From the NCBI GenBank assembly GCA_963783865.1, contig CAWAPD010000002.1:198415-262414 (forward strand): DNA of 64,000 nt. The letters are read 5' to 3'. The stretch comes from an uncultured Actinomycetes bacterium (lineage in GTDB: Bacteria; Actinomycetota; Thermoleophilia; UBA2241). The position numbers and the translations under genes were made by a program. Shown here one piece after another: positions 7,500 to 49,264 of this stretch; positions within the stretch are counted from its first letter, which is position 1; the number at the start of each line of letters is the position of its first letter. The notes under the pieces are model-generated. The model ran no database searches and was not told the origin of the DNA. It saw only the letters and a list, made by a program, of their open reading frames with translations.

Positions 7500-7563
7500 A
7501 ACGACGTCGAAGTGTAGCACACGACGTCCGGGACCCCTGCGACCCGGGTCGAGTCATCGGGGA

Positions 7564-31240: not shown

Positions 31241-31256
31241 GCTCAGTCCCCACCGC

Positions 31257-31823: not shown

Positions 31824-32845
31824 GGCGCGCTCCTGGCCACGACGACCGCCCCGACCACCAGCAGGTTCAGCAGCGAGACGGGCAGCATCACCTTCCAGCC
31901 CAGTTGCATGAGCTGGTCGTAGCGCGGCCGCGGGAATGTGCCGCGCACCACGACGAAGAACGCCAGGAACAGGATCGTCTTCAGCAGGAACCATACGATC
32001 GGCGGCAGCCACGGTCCCAGCCAGCCCCCGAAGAACAGAACGACGATCAGCGCCGAGATCAGCCCCAGGGCCGCGTACTCGCCGACGAAGAACATGCCGA
32101 ACTTCATGCCCGAGTACTCGGTGTGGAAGCCGGCCACGAGCTCGCTCTCGGCCTCGGTCAGGTCGAACGGCAGACGGCGCGTCTCGCCCAGGCCGGCCAG
32201 GATGAACACGATGAAGGCCGGGAACTGCGGCACCACGTACCAGAGGCCGCGCTGGGCCTCGACGATGTCGACCAGGCGGAACGAGCCGGCCAGCACCACG
32301 ACGCCGACCAGCGAGAGCCCCATGAAGACCTCGTAGCTGACCATCTGCGCCGCCGCCCGCAGGCCGCCGACGAGCGGGTACTTGCTGTGCGACGACCAGC
32401 CGGCGAGCACGACGCTGTAGACCGCCAGCGACGACATCCCGAGGAAGAAGAGCAGCCCCACGTCGAGGTCGGCGACGACGATCCGGCGCGTGAACGGCAC
32501 GACCGTGAACGAGAGCAGCACCGCGACCATCACGATGCCGGGGGCGAGGATGAACACCGCCCGGTCGGCGAACGGCGGCACCCAGTCCTCCTTGGTGAAG
32601 ATCTTCACCGTGTCGGCGACCACCTGCAGCAGGCCGCCCCAGCCGACGCGGTTGGGGCCGTAGCGGTCCTGCACCAGGCCGAGCAGGCGGCGCTCGAACC
32701 AGATCATGCCGGCGGCCATGTTGAGCGCCACGAACAGCACGAAGGCGACGATCAGCAGCTGCCAGTACCAGGCGGTGACGGCGACGGTCACCGGCAGGGC
32801 GAGCGCCGGCGGGGCGGCGGCGATGAGCGCCGTCACGGCGCTCAT
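31820..32845 (-). CDS. nuoH: NADH-quinone oxidoreductase subunit H
   Basis: …[19 protein letters not shown]…, …[21 protein letters not shown]…; ATG overlapping nuoG stop (ATGA). Confidence 0.9.
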
Positions 32846-35640
32846 CGCCGCCGCCCCCTGCGCCGCACCGTGATCGTCGCCCACGCCGGCACGGGCATGC
32901 CGTCAAGGCCGGGCAGCCCGACCGGCAGCCCGGCGCAGCCGGGCGGCAGGTCGGCCATGACGCGCAGCGGCAGCACGCGCCGCGCCGTGTCGGTGCGCAC
33001 GACCAGCCAGCGGCCCTCACGCGCCCGCAGCGCCGCGGCGTCTTCGGGACGCAGCGCCACGTAGGGCGCCGGCGCCCGTTCGGCGATGCCGGGCGTCATC
33101 AGGCTGAGGCGCTCCGAGCCGAACAGGTGGTGGATCGGCAGCAGCTGCAGCCGGCCGGGAGGCGGCTCGAAGGCGGGCGGCACGTCGCCGTAGGCGGCTC
33201 GCCGGCCGCCCGCCTCGATCAGCCGCCTCCCGGCCGGCCCGCCGCGCAGCGGTCCTCCGACCTCCTGCTGGAACCGGTGCAGGCTGTTCACCGAGTTCCA
33301 GCCCGGCGCCCAGGCGTTGGGCAGCAAGGCGCCGGGCACCTCGGGGCCCCGCGCGCCCTCGAGCGTGAAGGCGAGCGGCGAATCGGGATCGCCGGGGATC
33401 GGGCGCTCGTACACGTCCGCGTCGGCGTGAAGCGCGGTCCGTCCGCTCCAGCCGAAGGGCTGGCGGGCCACGCGCGCGCCGGCCACGCGGTAGCCGGCCG
33501 GCGGCGCCGCCTCGTCGACGCCGGCGAACTGCGGCAGCTCGGCCGCCAGGTCCCGCGCGGCGTCGTCGACCGCCTGCCAGCGCTCGCCCTCCGGGCGCTC
33601 GAGCCAGCTCAGCAGGTCGAGCAGCCAGCGCCAGGCGTCGCGCGCCTCGCCCGGGGCGGGCAGCACGGCGTAGAACCGCTGGGCTCGCCCCTCGTTGTTC
33701 ACGAACGTGCCGGTGGACTCGGCCCACGTCGCCGCCGGCAGGACCGCCTCGGCCCGCGACGCCGTGCGGTCGCGGAAGGTCGCCACCGAGATCAGGTGCG
33801 GACAGGCCGCGATCAGCTCGCGCGCGTCCTCGACCGGCAGGCTGCGGAACAGGTCGTCGAGCACGATCGCACAGTCGGCTTCGCCGGCGCGCAGGGCGGC
33901 CGCCGCCTCTGTCAGGGGGCGGCCGCCGAGCAGACCCAGCCCCACGCTGTTCGCCGCGGGCGCCGTCAGCAGCAGACGCGGCACGTCGGCGCCGCCGGGC
34001 AGGGACCAGGCGAGCGTCGCCGCCGCCTTGAGCAGCGCCTCGCTGCCGGCCGAGGCGCCGGCCACGATCAGCGGCCGCTCGGCGCCGCGCAGCAGCTCGA
34101 CGAGCGAGGCGGCGCGGCGCCGCAGCGCGGGCGAGAGCCCGCGCACCCGCGGCGCCGCGCCGCCCGGGCCGCCGAGCTCGTGGGCGGCCGCGAACGCGAC
34201 CCGCGCCAGCTCGTCGGGCGGCGCCTGCCACGCCTCGCGGGCCAGCTCATCGAGGGCGCCCGGACGCGTGCCGGCGACGATCAGCAGGCTGGGCTCGACC
34301 CGCTTGAAGCGGCCGATCCCGGCGTCGTTCCAGCGCCGGATGTGGTTGCGCACCTCGCCGGCGGTCGGCCGCAGGCGGTACCACGTGCGGATCGCCAGCT
34401 CGACCATCGGCGCCGTGTCGGCCAGGTCCTCGCCGAGAACGACGACGGCGTCGGCGTCGCCCACGTCGCGCAACGAGGCCGTCCGGCAAGCGCCGTCGCG
34501 CATGATCTCGAGCTGCAGGCCGACCAGGCGCTCGTCCTGCGCCGACATGCCCGAGAAGAACCGCTCGGCGCCCACCAGGGTGCGCAGGGCGTAGTTGGCC
34601 TCGAGCGAGAGGCGCGGCGAGCCGATGCCGATCGCCGGGCCGCGCCGCAGACGGGCCGCAACGTGGGCCAGCGCGTCGCCCGTCGCGGCGGGCAGCAGGT
34701 CGCGCGCCGGGGCCTTGCCCGGCACGACGCGCCCTTCGGCCCGCCGCAGGAGCGGCCGGCGCAGGCGCAGCGGCGAGTTCACGAACTCGTACCCGTAGCG
34801 GCCGCGGTCGCAGAGCCAGTCGCCGTTCACGGACTCGTTGTAGCGCGCGCGCATGCGGCGCAGCTCGCCGGCGCGCGCGCCCGGCCACACCCCGCACCCC
34901 AGGCTGCAGTGCGGGCACACCGAGGGCGCCGACTGCAGGTCCCACTTGCGCGTGTAGCGCGGCAGCAGCGTCTTGTCGTCGAACACCCCGGTCGGGCAGA
35001 CCTCGACCAGGTTGCCGCTGAACGGGCTCTCGAGCGTGCCGTCGCGGTCGCGGCCGAAGTACAGGCGGTCGCGGATGCCGAAGACGCCGAAATCGCGGCC
35101 GCCGGCGTAGTCGTTGTAGAAGCGGGTGCACCGGTAGCACGAGATGCAGCGGTTCATCTCGTGCGTGACGAACGGGCCGAGGTCCTGATTGGCCCAGGTC
35201 CGCTTGTCGCCGCGGTAGCGACGGCGCACGTGCCCCGTCATGACGGTCATGTCCTGCAGGTGACACTCGCCGCCCTCGTCGCAGACCGGGCAGTCGTGCG
35301 GGTGGCTCATCATCATCAGCTCGATCATGCGGGCCCGGAACCGGCGCGCCTCGTCGTCGTCGATGTCAATGCGCACGCCGTCGGCCGCCTCGGTCATGCA
35401 CGCCATGACGATCTCGCTCTGCTCGCGGCCGTCGCGGCCGACCCAGTGCTGTCTGACGGCGCACTGCCGGCAGGCGCCGATCGAGCCCAGGTGCGGATGC
35501 CAGCAGAAGTACGGCAGGTCGAACCCCAGCGAGAGCGCCACGTCGAGCATGTTGCGGCCCTCTTCTGCGCCGTGCTCGCGGCCATCGATGACGACCGTGA
35601 TCTCGCGGCCCGTGCCGCCGTATGCCGAGGCGCCCTTCAT
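32842..35640 (-). CDS. nuoG: NADH-quinone oxidoreductase subunit G (long form with molybdopterin-like domain)
   Basis: 932 aa; N-terminal 2Fe-2S/4Fe-4S Cys clusters (…[15 protein letters not shown]…, …[10 protein letters not shown]…, …[10 protein letters not shown]…CPTG…). Confidence 0.9.
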
Positions 35641-37031
35641 CGCGCGCCTCCGTCACCGGCGGGCGTGTCCACGCCGGGGGGCGCGGCGGCGGTCGCGGAG
35701 GCGTCGCGGTCGCCTCCGCGGCGACCGCCGCCACGCACCGCCGCCGCGACCGGGTCGATGGTGCCCCTGTGCGGATACGGACAGCCACCTCCGCTGACAT
35801 GGGCCTCGAACTCGTCGGCGAACAGACGCAGCGCCGCCTCGATCGGCTGCGTGGCGCCGGGAGCGTGGTCGCAGAAGCACTTGTCCGAGGCCATGAACCA
35901 GACCTGGTCGGCCAGCAGATCGGTGTCGCCCGGCTCGCCGCGTCCGGCCTCGATGTCCTCCAGCAGCCGGACCGTCCACTGCAGTCCCTCGCGACATGGG
36001 GTGCACCAGCCGCAGGACTCCTGGGCGAAGAACTGCTGCATGTTGAGGAGCATGCCGATCGGGCAGGTGTGGTCGTCGAGGACGACCATCGTGCCGGTGC
36101 CGAGGCGGCTGCCGACCGGGATCATCGACTCGAAGTCCATGACCACGTCGAGGTCGGCGGCCGCCACGAAGGCGGTGGAGGCGCCGCCGGGGACGACGGC
36201 GCGAAGGCCATAGCCTTCGCGCATGCCCCCGGCGGCGCCCTCGATGACCTCGCGCATCGGGGTCCCCATCGGCAGCTCGAAACAGCCGGTGCGGTTCACC
36301 CGGCCGGCGACGGAGTAGATCTTGGTGCCGCCCTCCTCGGTCCGGCCCAGCGAGAGCCACCACTCCGGCCCGTGGGCGACGATCGGCGGCACGCAGCAGA
36401 AGGTCTCGACGTTGTTCACGACCGTCGGCCGCGCCCACAGGCCGGCGCCGGTCATGTGCGGCGGCCGCGCCCGCGGGTTCGCGCGCCGGCCCTCGAGGGC
36501 GCTGAGCATGGCCGAGGCCTCGCCGCAGATGTAGCGGCCGGCGCTCTGGTGGGTGAGGATGTCGAACGACCAGCCCGAGCCGAGGACCTCGCCGCCGAGG
36601 TAGCCGGCCGCCCGCGCCTCGGCGATGGCGACGTCGATGATGGCCAGCGGCCGGTCGTAGTTGGCCCGCATGAAGATGTAGCCCAGCGTCGATTGCGTCG
36701 CGTACCCGGCGAGCAGCATCCCCTCGAGCAGCAGGTGCGGGTTGCGCTCCATCAGGTAGCGGTCCTTGATGCTGGCCGGCTCCATCTCGTCGGCGTTGCA
36801 GACGATGTGCTTGACGGGCGGCGCGTCGGGGCCGAGCGGCATCGTGCTCCACTTGCGGCCGGTCGAGTAGCCGGCGCCGCCGCGGCCGCGCAGCTTGGCC
36901 TCGATCACCATCTGGGTCACGGCGGGCGGCTCGATGCCGGCCAGCGCCTTGCGCAGGCCGGCGTAGCCGCCCGCCGCCACGTACTCGTCGAGGCTCAGCG
37001 CGCGGCCGTCGGCGCGCATCGCGCCGGTCAT
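35637..37031 (-). CDS. nuoF: NADH-quinone oxidoreductase subunit F (FMN, NADH-binding)
   Basis: …RGRGGAGYSTGRKW…, …YICGEASAMLSALEG…, …ESCGWCTPCREG…; start at internal ATG MTGAMRADG…, upstream 130 aa of the six-frame ORF spurious. Confidence 0.9.
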   Translation of the reverse strand: MTGAMRADGRALSLDEYVAAGGYAGLRKALAGIEPPAVTQMVIEAKLRGRGGAGYSTGRKWSTMPLGPDAPPVKHIVCNADEMEPASIKDRYLMERNPHLLLEGMLLAGYATQSTLGYIFMRANYDRPLAIIDVAIAEARAAGYLGGEVLGSGWSFDILTHQSAGRYICGEASAMLSALEGRRANPRARPPHMTGAGLWARPTVVNNVETFCCVPPIVAHGPEWWLSLGRTEEGGTKIYSVAGRVNRTGCFELPMGTPMREVIEGAAGGMREGYGLRAVVPGGASTAFVAAADLDVVMDFESMIPVGSRLGTGTMVVLDDHTCPIGMLLNMQQFFAQESCGWCTPCREGLQWTVRLLEDIEAGRGEPGDTDLLADQVWFMASDKCFCDHAPGATQPIEAALRLFADEFEAHVSGGGCPYPHRGTIDPVAAAVRGGGRRGGDRDASATAAAPPGVDTPAGDGGAR

Positions 37032-37066
37032 GGGCAGCGCCGGCCGCGTCTCGCCGGCCGCGCCGC

Positions 37067-37531
37067 TCACGGGTACAGCTCCAGGATCTCGTCGACCCGC
37101 TCCGGCGTGAGGTCGCCGTGCAGCGTGCCGTCGACCATCATCGCCGGGCCCACATCGCAGGCGCCGAGGCAGACGATCGGCAGCAGCGTGAACCGGTCGT
37201 CGCCGGTCGTCCCGCCGAGCGGCACGCCGAGCCGCCCCTCGAGGTGGGCGCGGATCTCGTCGTAGCCGAGCTCCCAGCAGGCGAAGCTGTCGCAGAGCAG
37301 GACCACGTGGCGGCCGACGGGGTACCGGTAGAGCCCGTTGTAGAAGGTGGTCAGCTGCTCGAGGTCGGCGACGCTGACGCCGAGGTGGGCGGCGACGTCG
37401 CTCAGCGCCTCGTCCGGGAGCCACCGGCGGTGGCTCTGGACGATCTTGAGCGCCGTCGCCGCCCCCGACGACCGCGTCGCGTAGTGCTCGAGCGCGGCGT
37501 CGATCTGCCGGCGTTCCGCGGCGCTCAGCAT
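37067..37531 (-). CDS. nuoE: NADH-quinone oxidoreductase subunit E (2Fe-2S)
   Basis: 154 aa; …VLLCDSFACWELG…LPIVCLGACDVGPAMMV…. Confidence 0.9.
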   Translation of the reverse strand: MLSAAERRQIDAALEHYATRSSGAATALKIVQSHRRWLPDEALSDVAAHLGVSVADLEQLTTFYNGLYRYPVGRHVVLLCDSFACWELGYDEIRAHLEGRLGVPLGGTTGDDRFTLLPIVCLGACDVGPAMMVDGTLHGDLTPERVDEILELYP

Positions 37532-37570
37532 GGCCGCGTCCTCTTCACGACATCCTCTTCATCGCGGCCC

Positions 37571-39352
37571 TCACCGGTCCACGTCGCCCATGACGAAGTC
37601 GAGGCTCCCGAGGATCGTCACCAGGTCGGGGATCTCGAGCCCCCGGCACAGCAGCGGCAGCACCTGCACGTGGGGGAACGACGGCGTGCGGATGCGCGTG
37701 CGGTAGGCGCTCACGCCGCCGTCGCTGACGCAGTAGTACGCGGTGATCCCCTTGCTCCCCTCGATGGGCACCGCCGCCTCGCCGGCCGGGATCACCGGGC
37801 CCCAGCTCACGCCCAGGAAGTGGTCGATCAGCGTCTCGATGTCGTGCATCGTGCGCGGCTCCTTGAGCGGCGGCGTGGTCAGCGCGTGCTCGGCCTTGTA
37901 CGGCCCCGCCGGCATCTGCTCGACGCACTGCTCGATGATGCGCAGGCTCTGGCGCATCTCCTCGACGTGCACCGCCATGCGGTCGTAGCTGTCGCCGGTC
38001 GAGCCGGTCGGCACCTCGAAGTCGAACCACTCGTAGCCGCTGTAGGGCCGCTGCTTGCGCAGGTCCCACTCCAGGCCGGCGGCGCGCAGGACCGGGCCGG
38101 TAAGACCCCACTCGACGGCGTCGCCCTCGCTCACGGCGCCGACGCCGACCATGCGGCTGCGCACGACCCCGTTGCGCATGACCAGCCGGTCGTACTCGTC
38201 GAGCCGCGGCGGCAGCGCCCGCAGCACGTCGCGCACCAGGTCGCGCCAGCCGTCGGGCAGGTCCTGCTGCACGCCGCCGATGCGGAACCAGTTGGGGTGC
38301 ATGCGGCCGCCGGTGATCGGGCCGATGATGTTGTCGAAGATCTGCTCCCTGTCCTCGAACGTGTAGAAGACCGGCGACAGCGCGCCGATGTCCTGCGCCA
38401 GGGTGCCGTAGAAGACGAGGTGGCTGGCGAGGCGGAACGCCTCGCACAGCATGACCCGGATCACCTTGGCGCGGTCGGGCACCTCGATGCCGGCCAGCCG
38501 CTCGACGCTGCTGACGTAGGCGAGGTTGTTGATCACCCCGCTCAGGTAGTCGATGCGGTCGGTGTACGGGATGAACGTGTGCCACGTCTGGCGTTCGGCC
38601 ATCTTCTCGGCGCCGCGGTGGTGGTAGCCGATGTCGGGCACGCAGCTGACGATCTCCTCGTCGTGCAGGCCGACGATCACCCGGAACGGGCCGTGCGTGG
38701 CGCCGTGCTGGGGGCCGATGTTGAGGTACATGACGTGCGGGTCCTCGTCGGAGGTCGGGAGCCCCCACTCCTCGGGCCGGAAGCGAAGCTGGTCCTGCCA
38801 CTCCTCGGCCCGCTCCGGGGGCATCTCGAAGGGCAGCAGCTCCGTGCCGCGCGACGGCGACTCCTTGCGCAGCGGGTGCCCCTCCCACCACGGCGGCATG
38901 AGGATCCGCTTGAGGTTCGGGTGGCCCTCGACGGCGACGCCGAACATGTCCCAGAGCTCACGTTCGTACCAGGCGGCGGCCGGCCAGAGGTCGACGATCG
39001 AGTCGACCGCCGGCCGGCCGCCGCCGAGGGCGACCTTGAGCCGCACGTCGGCGTTGCGCTCGTAGGAGGTCAGCACGTAGAAGACGGTGAAGTCGGCGTC
39101 CGGCTGGCCCTCGCGGTGACGCCGCAGCCGCTCGTCGATGCCCCCCAGGTCGAACAGCGTGCGGAACGGCTGCGGCGCCTCGAGCTTGAGGTAGCGCAAG
39201 ACGTCACGCACGCGCTCGCGCGGCACCCACGCGGTGGGCATGGCGTCGGCCGTCGGCTGCCAGACGAGCTCGAGGTCGGGGAACGCCGCCGCCAGCTCGC
39301 GCTCGACGGGCGGCGTGGCCTGCTGCGTGGCGGGAGCGCCGGCGCCGGCCAT
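37571..39352 (-). CDS. nuoCD: Fused NADH-quinone oxidoreductase subunits C and D
   Basis: Single uninterrupted 593-aa ORF: N-terminal 30-kDa (NuoC) part, C-terminal 49-kDa (NuoD) part (…[12 protein letters not shown]…). Confidence 0.9.
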
Positions 39353-39353
39353 C

Positions 39354-40010
39354 TCAGGCCTCGCTCTCCGGTCGCAGGAAGGTCTCGCGCTGGCGCAGCG
39401 ACCGCTTCAGGTCGCGCAGCGACACGGGCATCGCCTGGTCGACCCGCTGGGCACCCACGGTCCAGCTCGCCGGACGCCGCTCGGCGCCGACCTTCGACCG
39501 CAGCAGGAGGAGGCCCTCCATGAACGAGGTCGGCGACGGTGGACACCCCTGCACGTAGACGTCGACCGGCAGGAACGAGTCGACCCCCTGGACGACGCTG
39601 TAGACGTCGTACATGCCGCCCGAGTTGGCACAGGAGCCCATCGAGATCACCCAGCGCGGCTCCATCATCTGGTCGTAGAGGCGCTGGATCACCGGCGCCA
39701 TCTTCTGGAAGACGGTGCCGGCGACGATCATCACGTCGGCCTCGCGCGGCGAGCTGCGCAGCACCTCGGCGCCGAAGCGCGCGATGTCGTAGCGCGGCGT
39801 GAGGCTGGTCGCCATCTCCACGAAGCAGCAGGACAGCCCGAAGCCGAACGGCCACAGCGAGTTCTTGCGGCCCCAGGCGAGCAGCGACTCGAGCCCGGCG
39901 AGGGCGACGGGCGACGGCGGGCCCCCGGGCCCGCCGCCCGCTTCTTCGGTCGCGAGCCTGGCGAGCGCCTCCACTGTGCGAGACGGATGGTCGGCGCGGC
40001 GCGGTCTCAT
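39354..40010 (-). CDS. nuoB: NADH-quinone oxidoreductase subunit B (N2 cluster)
   Basis: …[14 protein letters not shown]…, …[12 protein letters not shown]…, …GCPP…; ATG overlaps stop of upstream CopC-CopD gene (ATGA). Confidence 0.9.
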
Positions 40011-41410
40011 TCGCCACCTCCGGAGGCGGACCCCGCTGGCGGCGACGGCGCCCCGGCGGCCGCCCGGGCAGCCACAGGCTGCGGGACGGCGGCCGCCGTC
40101 CTCGCCGTCGCCTGAGCCGCCTTCGGCGCCTTGGCCGGCGCCGACCCGCTCAGGACTGCCGTCACGGCGAGGATCGCGGCCGCGACGGCGATCTCGGCCA
40201 CCACGCTCTGGCGCAGCGGCCGCACGTCACCGCGGCGCCGCACGGCCGGCACCGAGCGGTAGCGGCTCAGGGCGCCGAGCCCCACGATGACGAGCACGAG
40301 CGCGAGCTTGAGCAGCAGCAGCCGGCCGTAGCGCGTGCCGGTCAGCGCCGAGAGCGAGCCGACCTCGACGGCGGCCCGCGCCAGACCGGTCACGATCACG
40401 GCGGCGAGGGCCGCACCGGCCATGGTCGAGAAGCGCGAGACCACCTTCGCGCGCTCGTCGCCGGTGGACCCCCGGATCGCGAGGAGCAGCCATGGCAGAC
40501 CCCCGACCCAGCAGCCGACGGCGAGCAGGTGCACCCACTGCGCGGTCAGGTTGACGAGGCGCGCGGCCGACGGCGCGTCGGCGTGACCGGCGACGACGTG
40601 GGCAAGCATGCCCAGGGCGCCGGTCACGCCGACGGCCAGCAGCCCCCAGCGCCCGGCGCCCAGCTCGAGCGACAGCACGGCGACGCCGCTCAGCAGGACC
40701 AGGGCTCCCAGAGTCACGAGGTTGCGCCCCTCCGCGGTGTCGAACAGCGGCAGCAGGGAGGCCGCCCGGATGAGGGCCTTGTCGGCGTACATCATCACCA
40801 CGACGCCGGCGATCGCCACCAGCCAGGCGGAGCGCAGCAGCACCCGCCCACCCACGGGCAGCTCGCCGCGCAGCGCCACCCAGCAGACCGCGGCCGCCCC
40901 GACCAGCAGCGCCAGGCCGCAGAAGATCAGCCAGCGCCCGACGTCCGAGGCAACCGACACGCCGGCCGAGCCCGGCGAGGGTGGAGCGACGATCACCGGC
41001 GGTGCCGGCACCCGCACCCCGAACGTGAACACGCCGGCTTCGGGGTGCCCGTCAACAGAGATGTTCTGCCAGCTCACCGTGTAGCCGCCCACGGGCAGGG
41101 TCCACCGCAACGGCACCTCGAGCGACAGCGGGTCGCCCGGCGCGCCGATCGCGGCGCCGGCCCCGGCGACGGGTGCGCCGGAGGGCCCGAGGAGCTGCGC
41201 GCTCGAGTGGGTGACGTCGATCGGCTCGGCGAACGTGAGCACGATCACGGCGGGCGACTTCTGGACGGTCGAGCCCGGTGCAGGGGTCGCACCGGTCAGG
41301 TAGGCATGGGCCCATGCCGGACAGGCCGTCAGCCCGAGGACCGCCGCGCAGACGACGACCGCGGCGACCGCCCCGATGCTCCGATGTACGACGCTCCTCG
41401 CTCTCATCAC
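40007..41410 (-). CDS. CopC-CopD fusion copper protein (YcnJ-like): periplasmic CopC cupredoxin-like domain + 8-TM CopD domain
   Basis: Signal peptide ending …AWA|HAYL (His1 Cu site of CopC), …[23 protein letters not shown]… CopC core, CopD region with conserved His (…[15 protein letters not shown]…); GTG/ATG start 4 nt after caa3 subunit I/III stop. Confidence 0.8.
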
Positions 41411-41414
41411 ACGC

Positions 41415-43886
41415 TCACAGCAGGTAGACGACGAAGAAGATCGCGATCCAGACGGCGTCGACGAAGTGCCAGTAGTAGGTGGCCGCCTCGGCCATGCCCA
41501 GGTTGCCGCGCTGGGTGGCTTCTTCGACGGCCGCCGCCTCGGCGGGGTCCTCCGGCGGCGGCCCCGGCGGCCGCCACGAGGTCCGCATCAGCAGGTAGAT
41601 CAGGATCACGATGCCTGCCGAGACGTGCATCGCGTGGAGGCCGGTCAGGGTGTACAGGGACTCACCGCGCAGCCCGGCCGAGAACCCGAAGCCGGCGTGG
41701 GTCCACTCCCAGATCTCGGCGCCGAGGAACACCGCACCCAGCACGATCGTGACGACCAGCAGCCCGTGGCACTGCCCCCGCGCCCCCTTGCGCCAGGCGA
41801 CCAGCGCGTAGTGGGCGGCCACGCCGCTGGAGAGCAGGAAGATCGTGGCGATCGCGGCCAGCTTGACGTCGAGCGGTGGGGTGAGCGTGACGGAGCCGTT
41901 GTGGATGCGCAGGTGCACGTCGGCGGCGATCAGCGATCCGAACAGCACGGCCTCGGAACCGAGGAAGGCGATCATTCCCCACCCGAGCGCCGTGAAGCGC
42001 TGCCCCGGCAGGTCCCGAGGCTCGGGTCCGCGCCACGGCGCGCCCATCCAGACGAGCATGACGACCGCCAGCAGCGCCAGGCCGATGGCCGCGATGACGA
42101 GTGAGGTCAGCAGACCGATGCCCACCACCAGCACGCCGAGGGCGAGCCACAGCGGCATCGGCGTGTTGTGCGCCACCCGCTCGATCCCGGGGTCGGCGGC
42201 GCCGGCCTCGCCGGGCTGGCCCGGCCCGGCCGGCGCCGCCCCGGCGGTCGGCTCCTCGGCACCTTTGGACTCGGCGTGCTTGACGTCCCACAGGGGTCGC
42301 TCGCTGGTCACGACGGGCAAGGTGTCGAAGTTGTAGTGCGGGGGCGGCGAGGTGGTGGCCCACTCCAGCGTCCAGGCGTCCCACGGGTCGTCGCCGGCCG
42401 GTCGTCCCGAGCGCAGGCTGTGCACGACGTTGACGAGGAAGATGATCACCGACATGCCGATGATGTAGGCGCCGATCGCCGAGACGAAGTTGAACGGCGT
42501 CCACCCGAGGCCGGGCGCGTACGTCGAGATGCGTCGCGGCATGCCCATCAGCCCCACGATGTACATGGGGAAGAACGTCAGCGAGACGCCCGTGACAGTG
42601 ACCCAGAAATGGACCTTGCCCACGCGGTCGCTCAACATGCGGCCGGTCATCTTCGGGAACCAGTAGTAGATGCCGGCGAAGACGGCGAAGACGGTGCCGG
42701 CGAAGAGCACGTTGTGCAGGTGGCCGACGATGTAGAAGGTGTCGTTGACCTGCCAGTCGAACGGCACCACCGCCTGCGTCACGCCGGTGATGCCGCCGAT
42801 CGTGAACAGGGCGATCAGCCCGCAGGCGAACAGCAGCGATGTCTTGAAGCGCAGGGCCCCGCCCCACATCGTGGCCAGCCAGTTGAAGATCTTCACGCCG
42901 GTGGGGATGGCGATCAGCATGCTGGTGCCGGCCATGATCGAGTTGAAGTAGGTCGGCAGACCCGTGGTGAACATGTGGTGTGCCCAGACCAGGAAGCCGA
43001 GGCCCCCGATCACGAGCAGCGAGACGATCATCGCCGTGCGCCCGAACAGCGGCTTGCGCGAGAAGACCGGCACGACCTCGCTCATCATGCCGAAGGCCGG
43101 GAGGATGAGGATGTAGACCTCGGGGTGGCCGAAGAACCAGAACAGGTGCTGCCAGATAATCGGGTCGCCCCCGATCGTCGTGAAGAAGTGCGTGCCGTAG
43201 TGGCGGTCGAGGTAGAGCATGCCGACCGCCGCGGTGAGGCTCGGGATGGCGAACAGGATCAGGAACGAGTTGATGTACGTGGCGATCGAGAAGACCGGCA
43301 TCTGGGACCATCTCATGTTCGGCGCCCGCAGCCGGTTCATGGTGACGATGAAGTTCACCGCGCCGGCCAGCGAAGAGGCCCCCAGCATGGCGATCGCCAC
43401 CGTCCAGAAGCTGACACCGTCGTGGGGCGAGAACACGCGCTCGGTGAGCGGGGCGTAACTGAACCAGCCGGTATCGAGGGCGGGCCCGAAAAGGAAGGCG
43501 CTGTAGAACAGCAGCCCGCCAAAGAGGAACGTCCAGTAGCTGAAGGCGTTGAGACGCGGGAAGGCCATGTCTTCGGCGCCGATCTGGAGCGGCACCAGGT
43601 AGTTGGCGAAGCCGATCAGGATCGGCATGCCGAAGAGGAACACCATCGTCGTGCCGTGCACCGAGAACAGCTGGTCGTAGGTGTTCGCGGAGACCACGTG
43701 GAGCCCCGGCAGCATGGTCTGCGTGCGCATGACCATGGCGAACGAGGCGGCCACGAGGAAGAACAGCCAGGCCGAGCCGATGTACAGCGTGCCGATGCGC
43801 TTGTGGTCGGTCGTCGTCAGCCACGACGCAAGGCCGCGGCGCTCGGCCGGCAACTCGACGGCGATCGGCAGGGCCGGCGCGCTCAC
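41415..43886 (-). CDS. ctaD: Cytochrome c oxidase subunit I fused to subunit III (caa3-type, Thermus CaaB-like)
   Basis: 824 aa from GTG overlapping subunit II stop (GTGA); subunit I region (…WLTTTDHKRIGTLY…, …WFFGHPEVYILILP…, …AHHMFTTG…), C-terminal subunit III region ending …YWHFVDAVWIAIFFVVYLL; upstream 270 aa of the six-frame ORF spurious. Confidence 0.9.
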   Translation of the reverse strand: MSAPALPIAVELPAERRGLASWLTTTDHKRIGTLYIGSAWLFFLVAASFAMVMRTQTMLPGLHVVSANTYDQLFSVHGTTMVFLFGMPILIGFANYLVPLQIGAEDMAFPRLNAFSYWTFLFGGLLFYSAFLFGPALDTGWFSYAPLTERVFSPHDGVSFWTVAIAMLGASSLAGAVNFIVTMNRLRAPNMRWSQMPVFSIATYINSFLILFAIPSLTAAVGMLYLDRHYGTHFFTTIGGDPIIWQHLFWFFGHPEVYILILPAFGMMSEVVPVFSRKPLFGRTAMIVSLLVIGGLGFLVWAHHMFTTGLPTYFNSIMAGTSMLIAIPTGVKIFNWLATMWGGALRFKTSLLFACGLIALFTIGGITGVTQAVVPFDWQVNDTFYIVGHLHNVLFAGTVFAVFAGIYYWFPKMTGRMLSDRVGKVHFWVTVTGVSLTFFPMYIVGLMGMPRRISTYAPGLGWTPFNFVSAIGAYIIGMSVIIFLVNVVHSLRSGRPAGDDPWDAWTLEWATTSPPPHYNFDTLPVVTSERPLWDVKHAESKGAEEPTAGAAPAGPGQPGEAGAADPGIERVAHNTPMPLWLALGVLVVGIGLLTSLVIAAIGLALLAVVMLVWMGAPWRGPEPRDLPGQRFTALGWGMIAFLGSEAVLFGSLIAADVHLRIHNGSVTLTPPLDVKLAAIATIFLLSSGVAAHYALVAWRKGARGQCHGLLVVTIVLGAVFLGAEIWEWTHAGFGFSAGLRGESLYTLTGLHAMHVSAGIVILIYLLMRTSWRPPGPPPEDPAEAAAVEEATQRGNLGMAEAATYYWHFVDAVWIAIFFVVYLL

Positions 43887-44917
43887 TTCAGCTCCTCGAG
43901 GTAGGCGACAAGGTCGGCGATCTGCTGGGGCGGCAGCGGGACCGCCGGCATATGGGCGCCCGGCTTGATCCCCTGCGGGTCGTCGATCCAGCGGGCCAGG
44001 TTGGCCGGCGTGTTGGTCAGCGTGTAGGCGGCGATGCCCTGCCGGCTGCCGAAGTGGGTCAGGTCGGGGCCGAATTCGCCCTGCAGGCTGGTGCCGCGGA
44101 TGGCGTGACAGCCGCTGCAGGGCAGGGCGGCGATCTCGCGGGAGCCGGCGATCGCCTGCGCCCCGACCGGCCGGCGCGCCGGCTTCTGCTGGTCGTCGAA
44201 CCAAGCCCCGAACTGCGCCGAGGTCTCGACCACGAACAGGAACCGCATCTTCGGGTGCGCCGTGCCGCAGAACTCGGCGCACTGGCCCAGGTAGGTCCCC
44301 GTCTTGGTGGGCAGGAACGTCGTGGCGTTCACGTGCGTGGGGATCATCTGCACCTTGCCGCCCATCTGCGGCACCCAGAAGCTGTGGATCACGTCGCTCG
44401 AGAGCAGGTTGATGTGCACGACCTGGTCGACCGGCACGTGGATCTCGTTGGCGGTGCGGAACGTGGCCCCGCGGTACTGTACGTCCCACCACCACTGGCG
44501 GCCGTCCACCGTGAGCTGGGTCGGGTCCGCCGACGACATGCCGACGAGCTGGCCGGTGGTGTGCAGGGTCATGGCGAACAGCACCGAGACGATGACCAGG
44601 GGGATCGCCGTCCAGACGAGCTCGATCCTGAGGTTGCCCCTGGTCTGGCTGGCTTCTTCCTCGGGCCGGTTGCGGAAGCGCACGACGTCGATGGCGAGCC
44701 AGATCCACACGGTCACGAGCACCGTGCTCAGAATCGCGAAGATCTCGATCGCCAGGCGGGCGATGTCGTGCGCCTCGGGGCTCGCCGGGTGGAATATGGT
44801 GGGAGCGTTGTCGGCGCAGGCCGCCAGCAGCACCAGGACCAGCAGCCAGAGGCCGGGCGCGACCCGCGTCGCGACGCGGGTCGCGCCCCGCCGCCGGGTT
44901 CGCGATGCGGCGGGCAC
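43883..44917 (-). CDS. ctaC: Cytochrome c oxidase subunit II fused to C-terminal cytochrome c domain (caa3-type, CaaA-like), lipoprotein signal
   Basis: Lipobox LLAAC|ADN, two TM, CuA site …HSFWVPQMGGK…GQCAEFCGTAHPKM…, C-terminal CSGCH haem c motif; start assigned to GTG 44917 (no in-frame ATG upstream of signal peptide), uncertain. Confidence 0.8.
   Translation of the reverse strand: MPAASRTRRRGATRVATRVAPGLWLLVLVLLAACADNAPTIFHPASPEAHDIARLAIEIFAILSTVLVTVWIWLAIDVVRFRNRPEEEASQTRGNLRIELVWTAIPLVIVSVLFAMTLHTTGQLVGMSSADPTQLTVDGRQWWWDVQYRGATFRTANEIHVPVDQVVHINLLSSDVIHSFWVPQMGGKVQMIPTHVNATTFLPTKTGTYLGQCAEFCGTAHPKMRFLFVVETSAQFGAWFDDQQKPARRPVGAQAIAGSREIAALPCSGCHAIRGTSLQGEFGPDLTHFGSRQGIAAYTLTNTPANLARWIDDPQGIKPGAHMPAVPLPPQQIADLVAYLEELK
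44855..44888. promoter_or_regulatory. 34-bp perfect palindrome GGGCGCGACCCGCGTCGCGACGCGGGTCGCGCCC in the ctaB / caa3 divergent region (inside the 5' end of the subunit II ORF as called)
   Basis: Verified base by base (17/17 complementary pairs); about 80-110 bp upstream of ctaB ATG. Confidence 0.6.
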
Positions 44918-44965
44918 GGGTACTGAGCGGCTGCCGACGAGGTCGTCGACGGAGGAGCCTGAGGG

Positions 44966-45802
44966 ATGGAGTACCTGCGGGTCACCAAGCCCCGCATCGT
45001 GGCGCTGTTCGCCGTGACGGTCCTGGCCGCCCTGCTGCTGGCCGGGCCGCCGAGCCCCGCGGTGAGCGCCGCCGTGCTCTGCGCGGCGGCGCTCACCGTC
45101 GCCGGCGCGGCGGCCATGAACGGCGCCCTCGAGTACCGGCTCGACGCCCGCATGGAGCGCACCCGCCGGCGCCCGGTCGCCAGCGGCGCCATCACGCCGC
45201 GCCACGCCCTGCTCTTCGGGCTGGCCCTGACGGCCGCCGGCGTCGTCGCCGTGCTCGCGGTCGGCGGCGCCCTCGCGGCGGCCTTCGCCGCCGCCGGCGC
45301 CGCCTACTACGTCGTGGTCTACACGCTGTGGATCAAGCCCCACACCGGCCTCAGTTCCATCCCCGGCGGACTGGCCGGCGTCTTCCCCGTGCTCATCGCC
45401 TGGGCCGCCGCCGGGGCGCCGGCCGACGCCGACATCGCCTTCGTGTGCCTGCTCATCGTCGCCTGGTCGCCGCCCCACTTCTGGGCTCTCGCCTACGCCC
45501 GCGAGACCGAGTTCGCGGCCTCTGGCATCCCCGTGCCCCCCGTCGTCTACGGGGACCGCGCCGCCGGCCGCCAGCTGCTGGTGGCCACCGCCGTGCTGGT
45601 CGGGATCACCTTCGTGGCCGCCGCCACGCTCTACGGGTGGCTGTTCTGGGTCGTGGCGCTCGCCGGCGGCGCGGCCCTGCTGGCCGCGGCCGCGCTGGTC
45701 GCGCGCCGCGGCTCGCGCCGCGCCGCCTGGACGCTGCACAAGCTCTCCGGGCCCTACCTGGCCCTGCTCCTGGCGGCCGTCGTCGTCGAGCGGCTGCTGT
45801 AG
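44966..45802 (+). CDS. ctaB: Protohaem IX farnesyltransferase (haem O synthase)
   Basis: 278 aa, 8-9 TM UbiA-fold; …LRVTKPRIVAL…; RBS GGAGGAG; divergent from caa3 genes, convergent with qcrB. Confidence 0.85.
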   Translation: MEYLRVTKPRIVALFAVTVLAALLLAGPPSPAVSAAVLCAAALTVAGAAAMNGALEYRLDARMERTRRRPVASGAITPRHALLFGLALTAAGVVAVLAVGGALAAAFAAAGAAYYVVVYTLWIKPHTGLSSIPGGLAGVFPVLIAWAAAGAPADADIAFVCLLIVAWSPPHFWALAYARETEFAASGIPVPPVVYGDRAAGRQLLVATAVLVGITFVAAATLYGWLFWVVALAGGAALLAAAALVARRGSRRAAWTLHKLSGPYLALLLAAVVVERLL

Positions 45803-45819: not shown

Positions 45820-47190
45820 TCACGCCACCGCCGTCGTCGCGCGCCGCCAGGCGCGGAACAGCAGGTACGCGAGCAGTGCGATCACGAACGGCAGCATGAC
45901 CGTCAGCAGCTGCAGGATCGCCAGCAGGGTCGGCTGGTGCCAATGGAACACCACCGCGAACACGTCGTTGCCCCCGCCGATGAGCAGCACCATGACGAAG
46001 GTGAACAGGCCCAGGGCCACGGCCATTCGGCCGGGCCGGGCCGACGGCGGGTCGAGCACGTTGTGGAACCCGCGCCCGGTCACCGCCGCGTCGAGCCAGG
46101 GCCAGATCAGGAGGAACCCGACGATCAGCCCGGGCAGCAGGGCGGCGGGCCAGAACAGCGCCGGCAGCGCGTAGCTACCGATGTGGATGTCCCACGAGGG
46201 CATCATGCGCACCGCCCCCTCGAGCCACCCCGTGTACCAGTCGGGCTGGGCGAACGAGGTCGAATCCCACGGCGTGTAGGGCCCATACAGCCAGACCGGG
46301 TTGATCTGGAAGAAGCCGCCCATGATCGTCAGCAGGCCGCCCACGGCCATGAAGAAGCCGGTCGTGCGCAGGGCGTAGGCGGGCATGAGCGGCGTGCCGA
46401 CGACGGTGCGGTCGTCGCGACCGCGGCCCGGGTACTCCGTGTGCCGCTGCAGCCACAGCAGCCCCAGGTGGGCGCCGAGCAGGCCGGCTATGAGGGCCGG
46501 GATCAGGAAGATGTGCACGGGGTAGAGGCGGGCGATCAGCGTCTCGCTGGGGAACGAGCCGCCGAACATCAGCGAGGCGAGCTGCGGGCCGACCAGCGGG
46601 ATGGACTGGGTGATCGAGTAGGCGATCCGCAGGCCGGTGCCCGACAGGAGGTCGTCGGGCAGCGAGTAGCCGAACACGCCGTTGGTGAACACCATCGTCA
46701 GCAAGCCGAGGCCGATCAGCCAGTTGACGCGCCGCGGGCGCCGATAGGCGCCGGTGAAGAACAGGCGCGCCAGGTGGATCGAGACCGCCGAGGCGAACAG
46801 CAGGGCCGCCCAGTGGTGGATCTGGCGCACCAGCAGGCCCCCACGGACGTCGAAGCTCAGGTCGAGGACCGAGCGATAGGCCGCCGACACGGTGGTCCCG
46901 TCGAGCGGCTTGTAGCTCCCGTGGTAGACGACCGGCGTCTGCGAGGCCGAGAAGAACAGGGCCATGAAGACGCCGGTCACGACCAGCACGATGAAGCTGT
47001 AGAGTGCGATCTCGCCGAAGAAGAACGACCAGTGGTCGGGGAAGATGTGGCGCAGCTCCTCGCGCAGCACGCGGCTGCCGCCGAGCGTGTCGTCGAGCCA
47101 GTCGCCGGCGGCGTGCGCGGCGTCGCGGACCTTGCGGCGGCCCACGCCGAACGAGGCGCCGAGCTGTCTGGTCAGGCGCGTGTCAGGCAT
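45820..47190 (-). CDS. qcrB: Cytochrome bc1 (menaquinol-cytochrome c reductase) cytochrome b subunit
   Basis: 456 aa; haem-ligating His pairs in helices (…RQIHHWAALLFASAVSIHL…, …YPVHIFLIPALIAGLLGAHL…). Confidence 0.9.
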   Translation of the reverse strand: MPDTRLTRQLGASFGVGRRKVRDAAHAAGDWLDDTLGGSRVLREELRHIFPDHWSFFFGEIALYSFIVLVVTGVFMALFFSASQTPVVYHGSYKPLDGTTVSAAYRSVLDLSFDVRGGLLVRQIHHWAALLFASAVSIHLARLFFTGAYRRPRRVNWLIGLGLLTMVFTNGVFGYSLPDDLLSGTGLRIAYSITQSIPLVGPQLASLMFGGSFPSETLIARLYPVHIFLIPALIAGLLGAHLGLLWLQRHTEYPGRGRDDRTVVGTPLMPAYALRTTGFFMAVGGLLTIMGGFFQINPVWLYGPYTPWDSTSFAQPDWYTGWLEGAVRMMPSWDIHIGSYALPALFWPAALLPGLIVGFLLIWPWLDAAVTGRGFHNVLDPPSARPGRMAVALGLFTFVMVLLIGGGNDVFAVVFHWHQPTLLAILQLLTVMLPFVIALLAYLLFRAWRRATTAVA

Positions 47191-48103
47191 ACACGTTCCA
47201 GAAGCCGGGGCCGATGGGCTCCTTGAAGTCGCTCTGCGCGACCAGGAACCCGTTCGCGTCGACAGCCAGCGGGAGCTGCGGCAGGGGGCGCGCGGCCGGT
47301 CCCGAGACCGGCCGCGCGCCCCTCAGCACGTCGAAGGTCGACTGGTGGCAGGGGCACAGCAGCACCTGCGCCTGGTCCTCGTACTGCGACACCGCGCAGC
47401 CGGCGTGGGTGCAGACGCGCGAGAAGGCGAGGAAGCCGTCGGGACTCCACGACTCGCGGCCGGGCAGGGGGGTGAACCGCCCGGGCAGGCGCAGCAGTGC
47501 CACCTGCGAGTCGCCGGCGTCGGTGTGACCCTCGGGGAACGCGACCAGGAACCCGCCGGCGGCCAGCGCATCGCGGGTCACCGGCTGGCCGTCGATCGTC
47601 ACCAGCCTGGCGCCCGGGGTCCAGTGGGTGTGGAACGAGCGGCCGCGCGGCCGCGAGCCGAACGCGCCCACGAGCGCGAGCTGGCTCAGGGCGAAGACCG
47701 TGGCACCGGTCACGAGGAGGCCCGTCAGCAGGCGTCGCCGGGTGAACAGCGACGCCTGGCGATGCAGCTCGTCTCCCAGCACCGCGCGCTCTTCCGCGTC
47801 GTCCGGCGGGATCGGGTACCGGCCCACCGCTGATTGGTCCTCGGGCCCGACCAGGTCGCGGCCCCAGTAGCTCAGCGACAGCGCCAGCCCCAGCAGGGCG
47901 GCGCCCAGCGTGCCCCCGAGCCAGGCGTTGTCGGCGTCGAGCACGAACGCCACGACGAAGCCGATGGCGCCGGCGATCGTGATCAGCGCCCCGAGTGCCA
48001 CGGGCCAGCCCGAGCGCCGGTGGGCGCGGGACGGAGGCGCCGGCGCCCCCGGCGCCGGCCCCGCCTCGACGGCCTGCGGCTCGCGCACCGGCGCGTCAGC
48101 CAT
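47183..48103 (-). CDS. qcrA: Rieske [2Fe-2S] iron-sulfur subunit of bc1 complex
   Basis: 306 aa; Rieske boxes CTHAGC … CPCHQS; 3 TM. Confidence 0.9.
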   Translation of the reverse strand: MADAPVREPQAVEAGPAPGAPAPPSRAHRRSGWPVALGALITIAGAIGFVVAFVLDADNAWLGGTLGAALLGLALSLSYWGRDLVGPEDQSAVGRYPIPPDDAEERAVLGDELHRQASLFTRRRLLTGLLVTGATVFALSQLALVGAFGSRPRGRSFHTHWTPGARLVTIDGQPVTRDALAAGGFLVAFPEGHTDAGDSQVALLRLPGRFTPLPGRESWSPDGFLAFSRVCTHAGCAVSQYEDQAQVLLCPCHQSTFDVLRGARPVSGPAARPLPQLPLAVDANGFLVAQSDFKEPIGPGFWNVYA

Positions 48104-48875: not shown

Positions 48876-49264
48876 CCCCGCCCCCGGCGCGAACGTCCGC
48901 TGGTGCCCCAGTCGAGCGCCCGCAGCCGCCACAGGTACGCCAGTGCGGCCGCCAGCAGCGTCACGAACACGGCGAGCTCGACGTAGCCGGTCCAGCCCAG
49001 GCTGCGGGCCGCGACCGCCCAGCCGAAGATGAACGCGACCTCCAGGTCGAACACCACGAAGAAGATGGCGACCTGGTAGAACTCGATCGAGAAGCGCCGG
49101 GGCAGGCCGCCGGCGGGATCGATCCCCGACTCGTAGCGGTCGCTCGTGCCGAGGTCGCGATGGCGCTGGCCCAGCACCATGGGCAAGCCGATCATCGTCG
49201 CCGTCAGACCGACGACGATCGCGGTGTAGACGAGGAACGACCAGGTGGCCCCGACCGCAGGCAT
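48872..49264 (-). CDS. nuoA: NADH-quinone oxidoreductase subunit A
   Basis: 130 aa, 3 TM; …YESGIDPAGGLPRRFSIEFYQVAIFFVVFDLEVAFIFGWA… diagnostic NuoA/ND3 motif; RBS GGGAGG. Confidence 0.9.
   Translation of the reverse strand: MPAVGATWSFLVYTAIVVGLTATMIGLPMVLGQRHRDLGTSDRYESGIDPAGGLPRRFSIEFYQVAIFFVVFDLEVAFIFGWAVAARSLGWTGYVELAVFVTLLAAALAYLWRLRALDWGTSGRSRRGRG

Follow-up and report, generated by a model that had tools for sequence, protein, structure and literature searches.

A close known counterpart of the protein considered here is Bacillus subtilis YcnJ. It joins an extracytoplasmic CopC domain, which binds Cu(II) at a histidine-brace site, to a CopD domain of eight transmembrane helices with conserved histidines and to a YtkA domain. 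When copper is limiting, YcnJ supports the Qox and Cta oxidases through the histidines of CopC and CopD (PMC13344008). Its gene lies in the ycnKJI operon, together with those for a repressor and YcnI. In Escherichia coli, CopC (YobA, of the Cu(II)-only class) and CopD (YebZ) are separate polypeptides accompanied by YebY, with a link to mar regulation and none to an oxidase (PMC11923076, PMC8689200); His135 and His154 of YebZ are required for copper uptake (PMC11923076). The actinobacterium Corynebacterium glutamicum has a CopD-containing membrane protein, CtiP, which is required for the bc1-aa3 supercomplex and for which CopC has been proposed as a partner (PMC9145763). CtiP has 16 transmembrane helices and a Caa3_CtaG domain, CopC (Cg1884) is separate from it, PCuAC is Cg1883, and the genes lie outside the cta operon. 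The same two Pfam families, CopC and CopD, also occur in the CopABCD and PcoABCD copper-resistance operons of Pseudomonas and E. coli plasmids.

The copCD gene described here is located in the window (the whole 64-kb stretch of DNA that was analysed), at the end of the genes for a caa3 oxidase and directly before nuoB; the protein family is known, whereas the gene order is unusual. Like YcnJ, the encoded protein fuses CopC to an eight-helix CopD, but it has no YtkA domain and its gene lies inside an oxidase operon, with no YcnI-like or YcnK-like gene among the window genes scanned with Pfam. The window contains no CtaG or PCuAC gene. Unlike the CopABCD and PcoABCD systems, it also lacks genes for CopA/CopB and CopRS; the protein is devoid of a Met-rich Cu(I) site, and the neighbours of copCD are respiratory genes only. 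We consider it probable that a YcnJ-type CopC-CopD protein ending the cta operon supplies copper to the caa3 oxidase, and that nuoB-N were placed behind it by rearrangement.

Table 1. Features of the respiratory gene cluster, with positions in the window
Feature	Position	Strand	Basis or remark
nuoCD (fusion), nuoE, F, G, H, I, J, K, L, M, N	25391-39352	-	profile matches
nuoB	39354-40010	-	profile matches
ATGA, copCD stop overlapping nuoB start	40007-40010	-	copCD TGA 40009-40007, nuoB ATG 40010-40008
copCD coding sequence	40007-41410	-	start GTG 41410 or ATG 41407; stop TGA 40009-40007
Disordered Ala/Pro/Gly-rich tail, aa 424-466	40010-40138	-	pLDDT <50; dN/dS 0.59; alignment
GGAGG Shine-Dalgarno of nuoB	40017-40021	-	6 nt before ATG, within copCD tail
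CopD membrane domain, aa 150-421, eight transmembrane helices	40145-40960	-	Pfam, NCBIfam, hydropathy, AlphaFold
Invariant CopD His275, His293	40583-40585, 40529-40531	-	alignment
CopC domain, aa 34-132	41012-41308	-	Pfam, alignment, structure match; no Met in domain
Candidate Cu(II) ligands His34, Asp119, His121	41306-41308, 41051-41053, 41045-41047	-	
Signal peptide, aa 1-33, AWA then His34	41309-41407	-	hydrophobic segment 11-29; AxA-H kept in 25-sequence alignment
ctaD/E fusion (oxidase subunits I+III, COX1+COX3, 823 aa)	41415-43886	-	GTG overlaps ctaC stop (GTGA)
ctaC (subunit II, CuA motif, C-terminal cytochrome c domain)	43883-44917	-	start uncertain
2 × 26-nt palindrome at 5' end of ctaC	44846-44897	-	head of ctaC...nuoN gene string
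ctaB (haem O synthase)	44966-45802	+	strand opposite to ctaC, 48 bp away
Complex III: qcrC, qcrA, qcrB	45820-48875	-	qcrC 48096-48875, qcrA 47183-48103, qcrB 45820-47190
nuoA (130 aa)	48872-49264	-	TGA overlaps qcrC ATG (ATGA)

Domain architecture of the CopCD protein

The gene product comprises 466 amino acids from the ATG, or 467 from the GTG, arranged as a signal peptide, CopC and the eight-helix CopD, and a protein identical to the window CopCD (P0001) is called in public assemblies. Purifying selection is indicated by an overall dN/dS of 0.27. The initial annotation had described a CopC domain whose His1 directly follows AWA and a fused eight-helix CopD, and the analysis agrees on both counts. 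Pfam CopC (PF04234) covers residues 35-132 with 70.9 bits (cut-off 23.3) and Pfam CopD (PF05425) residues 322-420 with 80.3 bits (cut-off 32.1), while the NCBIfam scores lie below the equivalog cut-offs, at 70.8 versus 95 for CopC and 109.6 versus 195 for the CopD profile, which spans residues 158-425.

Signal cleavage is predicted between PAWA and HAYL, making His34 the first mature residue by prediction; in alignments with CopC crystal structures this histidine falls on residue 1 of the mature protein, and the pair A33-H34 is invariant across the alignment of 25 homologs, as is the Asp-x-His motif D119-G-H121. The Met-rich Cu(I) loop is absent, with no methionine in residues 34-132, and the domain, like E. 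coli CopC, fits the Cu(II)-only class and not the class with two sites, Cu(I) and Cu(II). The AlphaFold model of CopC matches the structures 5ICU, 9C14 and 6NFQ with target-normalised TM-scores of 0.87-0.91 and an rmsd of 1.5 Å, in agreement with a seven-stranded, cupredoxin-like β-barrel; the score of 0.91 is that for 9C14, the CopC-like domain of YcnJ, whose identity to the window domain is only about 26%. Since the PDB has no CopD structure, the fold is confirmed for CopC only. Eight hydropathy peaks follow the CopC domain, and the AlphaFold model likewise gives eight transmembrane helices. Window His293 aligns with YebZ His154, which is essential for uptake, and His275 lies 18 residues before it (the spacing is 19 in YebZ, and the YebZ alignment stops short of His275).

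By homology, the exported CopC domain would capture Cu(II) through its N-terminal amine together with His34, Asp119 and His121 and hand the copper to His275 and His293 on the outer face of CopD, which would carry it into or across the membrane towards the CuA and CuB sites of the oxidase encoded upstream.

Most relatives carry a third domain that resembles YtkA weakly (E = 0.026-0.12); the YtkA-like domain of B. subtilis is implicated in CuA assembly. Its absence from the window protein speaks against the proposed role. Its place is occupied by the disordered tail, with a dN/dS of 0.59 versus 0.15 for CopC and 0.20 for CopD, and a profile of the relatives' third domain has no match anywhere in the window. 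One other CopCD protein without the third domain (P0009) was found, and its gene is not next to nuoB. An origin of the 43-residue tail from the tail of NuoA was considered, as NuoA tails gave z of about 3 in a shuffle test (3-6 of 2000 shuffles) versus about 1.5 for CopCD linkers. This proposal is not adopted here: the tail of an 86%-identical relative (L002) reached a z of only 1.25, a profile of the tail does not distinguish copCD from other six-frame ORFs in a window so rich in GC, and the tail is wholly absent from the CopCD proteins of L091 and L096, two loci of a divergent second lineage described below. Inheritance at the nuoB junction is claimed only for the stop codon and for the region around the nuoB start.

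copCD and the cta operon

In 28 of 79 informative loci, ctaD/E is directly upstream of copCD; the 28 loci, with the order ctaC-ctaD/E-copCD, belong mostly to Thermoleophilia genomes and form one clade in a neighbour-joining tree that carries no support values. The linkage is kept across CopCD proteins that are only 44-50% identical, with gaps of a few nucleotides or ATGA overlaps in the loci examined. These comparisons show that, in a clade of Actinomycetota genomes labelled mostly as Thermoleophilia, copCD is conserved as the last gene of a ctaC-ctaD/E-copCD operon. In the neighbour-joining tree, the CopCD proteins of the window and of L002 are placed on a long branch that falls outside the main clade of cta-linked loci, beside a locus of ycnI-ycnJ type, and because of this placement the orthology of the window gene is argued from synteny and not from the tree. 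At the window junction, the ctaD/E stop (TGA, 41417-41415) is followed by GCGT and then by the copCD GTG ATG, and the 4-nt gap given in the initial annotation can be read directly. A Shine-Dalgarno sequence is missing before copCD, which begins 4-7 nt past the end of ctaD/E; its translation is therefore probably by re-initiation and at a low level.

The initial annotation had also proposed that the protein supplies copper to caa3, which is well supported by this synteny and by the work on YcnJ, YebZ and CtiP (PMC13344008, PMC11923076, PMC9145763). No other copper-chaperone gene or cop/pco resistance gene is present among the window genes scanned. Alternatively, copCD could serve copper homeostasis or uptake in the cell as a whole, as YcnJ or YobA-YebZ do, and the vicinity of ctaD/E would then be merely convenient for its expression. 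In 51 of the 79 loci the homolog is not linked to cta and lies in unrelated contexts, so the CopCD family is not intrinsically oxidase-specific; one homolog (L011) has a ycnI-like gene as its partner and genes resembling those for arsenic resistance close by, and in E. coli YebZ supplies copper for sensing in the cytoplasm (PMC11923076). We nevertheless regard such a general role as unlikely for the window gene, given the tight linkage to ctaD/E at such low CopCD identity and the lack of a YcnK/CsoR or CopRS regulator nearby. As the last gene of a caa3 operon, copCD offers independent genomic support for the recently proposed YcnJ-type metalation of haem-copper oxidases and would extend that role to uncultured Actinomycetota.

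A split nuo operon

The window shares with the Thermoleophilia layout (nuoN...A / qcrCAB / ctaB / ctaC-ctaD/E-copCD) the same genes and the same nuoC-D and ctaD-E fusions, but differs in their arrangement. In relatives, nuoA-B-CD are contiguous and divergent from qcrC, as seen in 16 of the 18 loci whose upstream sequence extends over a full 10 kb. In the window the order is nuoA-qcrCAB-(ctaB)-ctaC-ctaD/E-copCD-nuoB...N, and the 14 nuo subunit genes are not all adjacent on one strand: nuoA, whose position the initial annotation overlooked, lies before qcrCAB; it is separated from nuoB by 8861 nt and seven other genes, one of which, ctaB, is on the opposite strand. Compared with a contiguous nuoA-N operon, a complex III/IV/copCD block of 8.9 kb has split off nuoA, and copCD has replaced it at the overlap with nuoB. 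The copCD-nuoB link is a secondary, lineage-specific rearrangement in which nuoB-N moved behind the native end of the cta operon, contrary to the earlier view of copCD as wedged between the oxidase genes and nuoB. The qcrCAB-ctaB-ctaC-ctaD/E-copCD block is now interposed between nuoA and nuoB, and copCD, in which the third domain of most relatives is missing, finishes on a stop codon that overlaps the nuoB start retained from the ancestral order. At least three breakpoints are needed for the rearrangement; no repeats were found at its junctions, and the distant relatives inspected for synteny do not share the genes that flank it.

Metagenome contigs scanned for the exact pattern of the copCD-nuoB junction gave no matches, and a protein-based scan run afterwards recovered L091 and L096, a divergent second lineage that has the same copCD-ATGA-nuoB junction with a CopCD only 47% identical. 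The window derives from a metagenome and has an apparent frameshift in nuoM near position 27303, which might raise the suspicion that chimeric assembly produced both the copCD-nuoB and the nuoA-qcrC junction. This is hardly credible and is effectively refuted by independent contigs, because the window-type order recurs in assemblies from different samples, L001 (Logan), L002, L087 and L088 (JGI), and the copCD-nuoB junction is also present in L091 and L096.

The nuoB start and its expression

The N-terminus of NuoB matches the V/M-[KR]PRRxPDPSRT of relatives, and the ATG at 40010-40008 is therefore taken as the true start. As in the canonical nuoA-N and Thermoleophilia layouts, this start is overlapped by an upstream stop, and in 12 of 13 relatives it is the nuoA stop that does so, in the same (A/G)TGA geometry. 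The ATGA shared by copCD and nuoB, correctly noted in the initial annotation, accordingly pre-dates the junction as the old nuoA/nuoB overlap with copCD as its new upstream partner. The locus illustrates how a stop-start overlap can outlive a rearrangement and gain a new upstream partner.

The initial annotation had taken the overlap as an unusual and obligatory coupling, with a copper gene inserted before nuoB and nuoB-N expression dependent on read-through from the oxidase and copper genes; complex I synthesis would then depend on copCD being translated. The overlap is real and leaves no intergenic space, and a poor Shine-Dalgarno match upstream of nuoB in L091, L096 and L002 (GGGG in the latter) means that coupling may matter in those loci. 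For the window, however, we find this very unlikely: copCD is ancestral at its position and nuoB-N the newcomer, the overlap is older than the junction, and, since (A/G)TGA overlaps are the commonest type of junction in the cluster (five of the ten co-directional junctions from nuoA to nuoG, two others being 8-nt overlaps) and nuoB keeps an optimally spaced GGAGG of its own, the coupling is not obligatory.

With the qcrCAB-to-copCD block interposed, nuoB-N would most likely share a transcript with the oxidase genes, and nuoA one with qcrCAB. It is plausible that nuoB-N transcription depends on the cta promoter, as there is no intergenic space and no promoter or terminator signal above chance: a scan for sigma-70-type sites gave no promoter-like sites, and the four terminator-like sites, versus 2.4 expected, are all within coding regions. 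The GC profile has no intergenic dip and an Rfam scan of the cluster returned no RNA family. If nuoB-N are transcribed in this way, the split nuo operon would be a natural experiment, with NuoA presumably made with complex III and the other subunits behind complex IV, that bears on the weight of operon order and co-translation in the assembly of large membrane complexes. Going further, the locus could be a respiratory super-cluster of about 24 kb, with nuoB-N and the copper importer expressed from the oxidase promoter and nuoA co-translated with complex III. We think this distinctly unlikely; were it true, the copCD-ATGA-nuoB junction of the second lineage, whether ancient and retained or arisen twice, would suggest that selection has favoured making, and perhaps assembling, complexes I, III and IV in step with their copper supply.

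Promoters of actinobacteria are ill-defined and internal ones are frequent, and nuoB-N might have a promoter of their own within the 3' portion of copCD. [quoted passage not shown] (2022) as relayed in PMC12361115. This appears somewhat unlikely, as copCD contains neither a site resembling sigma-70 promoters, the only type scanned for, nor a drop in GC, and the junction is retained in the second lineage. The presence of copCD-ATGA-nuoB in that lineage indicates either that the arrangement is ancient and retained or that it arose twice. The copCD-nuoB lineages group exclusively in a neighbour-joining tree of NuoB only, whereas in a tree of NuoB and NuoCD they are not grouped (15 of 200 bootstraps), and L091 forms a long branch there with the window as its nearest neighbour.

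Gene order around copCD

Neighbour genes identified by Pfam scans (listed in the table) confirm that ctaD/E, the gene for the fused oxidase subunits I and III, and nuoB flank copCD, as the initial annotation had it, but that description was incomplete and missed the layout of nuoA and qcrCAB. The minus-strand order places complexes III and IV together with copCD between nuoA and nuoB, separating these two genes by 8861 nt. At 48872-48875 the stop of nuoA falls on the qcrC ATG as ATGA, an overlap also found in two homologous loci, L087 and L088; a complex I subunit and a complex III subunit are thereby positioned to be translationally coupled. The ctaC stop likewise falls on the ctaD/E GTG as GTGA. 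From nuoA through nuoG, ten junctions join genes of the same orientation; five of them are 4-nt and two are 8-nt overlaps. None of the scanned window genes is Sco, PCuAC, CtaA, CtaG, YtkA or a cop/pco resistance gene.

Respiratory genes of the window in order of transcription of the minus strand
Gene(s)	Position	Strand	Basis and remarks
nuoA	49264-48872	-	Pfam; first gene in transcription order
qcrC, qcrA, qcrB	48875-45820	-	Pfam
ctaB	44966-45802	+ (opposite strand)	Pfam
ctaC	~44917-43883	-	COX2 + cytochrome c (Pfam)
ctaD/E, then copCD	43886-41415, then 41410..40007	-	Pfam
nuoB, nuoCD, nuoE, F, G, H, I, J, K, L, M, N	down to 25391	-	Pfam

In a window of 70.8% G+C, the copCD reading frame shows the codon-position G+C pattern typical of a real gene, and every element observed in the initial annotation is present: the CopC-CopD fusion, AWA followed by histidine, eight helices and both junctions. 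The frame opens with GTG 41410 and, immediately after it, ATG 41407, at which public gene calls begin a 466-aa product (P0001, an identical protein). The upstream COX1+COX3 fusion (823 aa, from GTG 43886; Pfam/NCBIfam) ends in a TGA at 41417-41415, and GCGT separates this stop from the copCD GTG. Because the copCD start has no Shine-Dalgarno sequence and lies 4-7 nt past the ctaD/E stop, the gene is likely translated by low-level re-initiation. At its other end, the copCD TGA (40009-40007) and the nuoB ATG (40010-40008) form ATGA, with GGAGG at 40021-40017, 6 nt ahead of the ATG.

The divergent ctaB and ctaC are separated by 48 bp (44917-44966), and GTG 44917 is the only canonical ctaC start that retains a full lipoprotein signal peptide; it is not conserved in L087. 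A 2 x 26-nt palindrome (44846-44897; 88% complementary, 15-bp perfect core, RNA fold z-score -3.0) lies just within the 5' end of ctaC, the gene that opens the ctaC-to-nuoN string. Its core is identical in L087 despite diverged flanks and has no counterpart in distant relatives; the palindrome may serve as an operator or as a regulatory hairpin.

Ancestral position of copCD and the rearrangement

The CopCD family search returned one close relative (86% identity), all others being at most 49% identical. Scanning a single genome per species yielded 80 loci, all from metagenome-assembled Actinomycetota, the nearest labelled Thermoleophilia and none from the window's own species, onto which the window's respiratory proteins were mapped for synteny. 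In 28 of the 79 informative loci ctaD/E immediately precedes copCD in the same orientation, and in a neighbour-joining tree computed without support values the 28 make up a single clade. Where the full 10 kb upstream was available, 16 of 18 cta-linked loci had nuoA, nuoB and nuoCD running away from a divergent qcrC-qcrA-qcrB, followed by ctaB on the nuo strand and ctaC-ctaD/E-copCD on the qcr strand. This conserved synteny indicates that copCD natively closes the cta operon in the group, and that nuoA-N is commonly contiguous and divergent from qcrC; the proposal that copCD had been inserted between oxidase and nuoB is not borne out.

Several loci deserve separate mention. One MAG (CAVXJO01) has the full nuoCD-B-A, qcrCAB, ctaB, ctaC-ctaD/E-copCD cluster on each of two contigs, L010 and L050; either its respiratory cluster is duplicated or the bin is mixed. 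In L049 copCD stands beside the cta/qcr block and convergent with ctaD/E, another local inversion at the same boundary. L011 (9289-11602), whose CopCD is the nearest neighbour of the window protein in the neighbour-joining tree, stands alone as a copper-uptake locus. Its copCD (574 aa) is immediately preceded by a ycnI-like gene whose 213-aa product has a His at the mature N-terminus, and arsenic-resistance-like genes are near. L007 and L023, from MAGs titled Bacteroidetes and Deltaproteobacteria, carry an actinobacterial Thermoleophilia-type respiratory cluster, and the bins are probably mislabelled or contaminated.

Adjacency of copCD to nuoB, absent from all loci of the synteny mapping, does occur in L001 (Logan), whose order is identical to that of the window, and in L002 (JGI), where ctaC-ctaD/E-copCD precedes nuoB with a 4-nt overlap. 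L087 and L088 (JGI) show htrA/PDZ-nuoA-qcrC-qcrA-qcrB, ctaB on the opposite strand and ctaC-ctaD/E. This recurrence in independent assemblies indicates that the arrangement is real and the property of a lineage. A NuoB scan of metagenome contigs found nuoA-nuoB in 78 loci and another arrangement in two: L091, with ctaD/E-copCD-nuoB-nuoCD (594-1952) and ATGA at both copCD junctions, and L096, with copCD-nuoB and ATGA at 913-916. The Shine-Dalgarno match before nuoB is poorer in L002, L091 and L096 than in the window. The L091/L096 lineage is 47% identical to the window in CopCD and 72-80% in NuoB, and a NuoB-only tree groups the two lineages exclusively; with NuoCD added, they no longer group (15 of 200 bootstraps), L091 having a long branch and the window still as its nearest neighbour. 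Common descent and independent origin of the copCD-nuoB order are both compatible with these trees.

The copCD/nuoB ATGA had been read as an unusual coupling. In 12 of the 13 relatives with a locatable NuoB N-terminus, the stop codon of nuoA (TGA) shares a GTGA or ATGA with the start of nuoB, and their N-terminus, V/M-[KR]PRRxPDPSRTA, is homologous to that of the window. The ATGA is thus the ancestral nuoA/nuoB overlap, with copCD now entering the same stop: nuoB-N was relocated and its overlapping start inherited. Deriving the window layout from the common one requires at least three breakpoints, with the block turned round and placed between nuoA and nuoB; neither repeats nor conserved flanks marking the route were found.

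Domains, ligands and tail of CopCD

The domain search matched both Pfam families, membrane part included: CopC at residues 35-132 (70.9 bits) and CopD at 322-420 (80.3 bits), the NCBIfam CopD alignment spanning 158-425. The signal peptide (hydrophobic residues 11-29) ends in AWA with His34 next; in alignment, His34 falls on the first residue of the mature chain both in CopC proteins of known structure and in the YcnJ CopC-like domain. Across 25 aligned homologs A33-H34, D119-G-H121 and E61 do not vary, nor do His275 (GHA) and His293 (QWVH) of the membrane domain. BLASTP pairs His293 with His154 of E. coli YebZ, whose mutation abolishes copper uptake (PMC11923076). Lacking any methionine, the CopC domain has no Met-rich Cu(I) site of the kind found in Pseudomonas CopC and in PcoC, which by sequence assigns it to the common Cu(II)-only class (PMC8689200). 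Hydropathy shows eight peaks downstream of CopC. In an alignment-based AlphaFold2 model (mean pLDDT 80.4, pTM 0.76) the CopC domain matches 5ICU, 9C14 and 6NFQ (TM-scores normalised to the target, 0.87-0.91), and residues 425-466 are disordered. Against the 86%-identical relative, dN/dS is 0.27 overall (CopC 0.15, CopD 0.20, tail 0.59), indicating purifying selection.

Most CopCD relatives (L003-L086, alignment A1, columns 525-645) carry a third domain of ~110 aa behind helix 8, with weak similarity to YtkA/FixH (E = 0.026-0.12) that becomes significant in more distant homologs. It is absent from the window lineage, L091/L096 and the homologous proteins P0007, P0009 and P0013. In its place the window CopCD has a 43-aa Ala/Pro/Gly-rich tail resembling the variable NuoA tails of relatives, a weak likeness (shuffling z ~3) with no profile signal; the window NuoA ends exactly where those tails start, and short NuoA tails also occur in some relatives. 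The L091/L096 CopCD stops directly past helix 8 (APPGGFLT*), with neither tail nor third domain.

Proposed function and expression

To the observed domain architecture, ligand conservation, topology, purifying selection and oxidase linkage, the studied homologs YcnJ (PMC13344008), YebZ (PMC11923076) and CtiP (PMC9145763) add a putative function: the CopC histidine brace would capture Cu(II) and hand copper to the CopD histidines, and CopCD would transport it in support of oxidase metalation. The linkage supports a role in oxidase biogenesis. By analogy CopCD may work like YcnJ, with which it shares the CopC and CopD families, yet it falls outside the three-domain definition of YcnJ because it lacks the YtkA domain. 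Nor is this a Cop/Pco resistance system, which has CopA/B, CopRS and a Cu(I) site, all missing here. The protein itself belongs to known families; a copCD within the caa3 operon across a clade is an unusual variant of known operons, its most unusual part being the complex III/IV/copCD block nested between nuoA and nuoB. In the limited library of literature searched, no published description of either layout was found. The locus is a neat example of how operons are remodelled; no new mechanism emerges from it.

Judging from layout, ctaC to nuoN (~19.5 kb, 15 genes) would be co-transcribed, as would nuoA-qcrCAB. No promoter-like or terminator-like signals above chance and no GC dip separate copCD from nuoB, a null result with which an internal actinobacterial promoter between the oxidase genes and nuoB may also be compatible. 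In E. coli, gene order itself is not critical for complex I assembly (Oppermann et al. 2022, as cited in PMC12361115), and by that analogy the nuoA/nuoB split could plausibly be tolerated or confer a mild advantage.

Further along the string, nuoM (26887-28462, minus) is broken by an apparent +1 frameshift near 27303, where GCCCTTGGCCTCG is observed and GCCCTGGCCTCG would hold the frame ...AVAMVFAL/ASLGLPGLGNFVGEF...; a sequencing error and a pseudogene are the two explanations, and a real frameshift would imply a defective complex I. The sole Rfam match in the window, a tRNA at 7426-7499 (minus), sits at the 5' end of a long EamA-family ORF (6480-7520), which has therefore probably been extended too far at its start.
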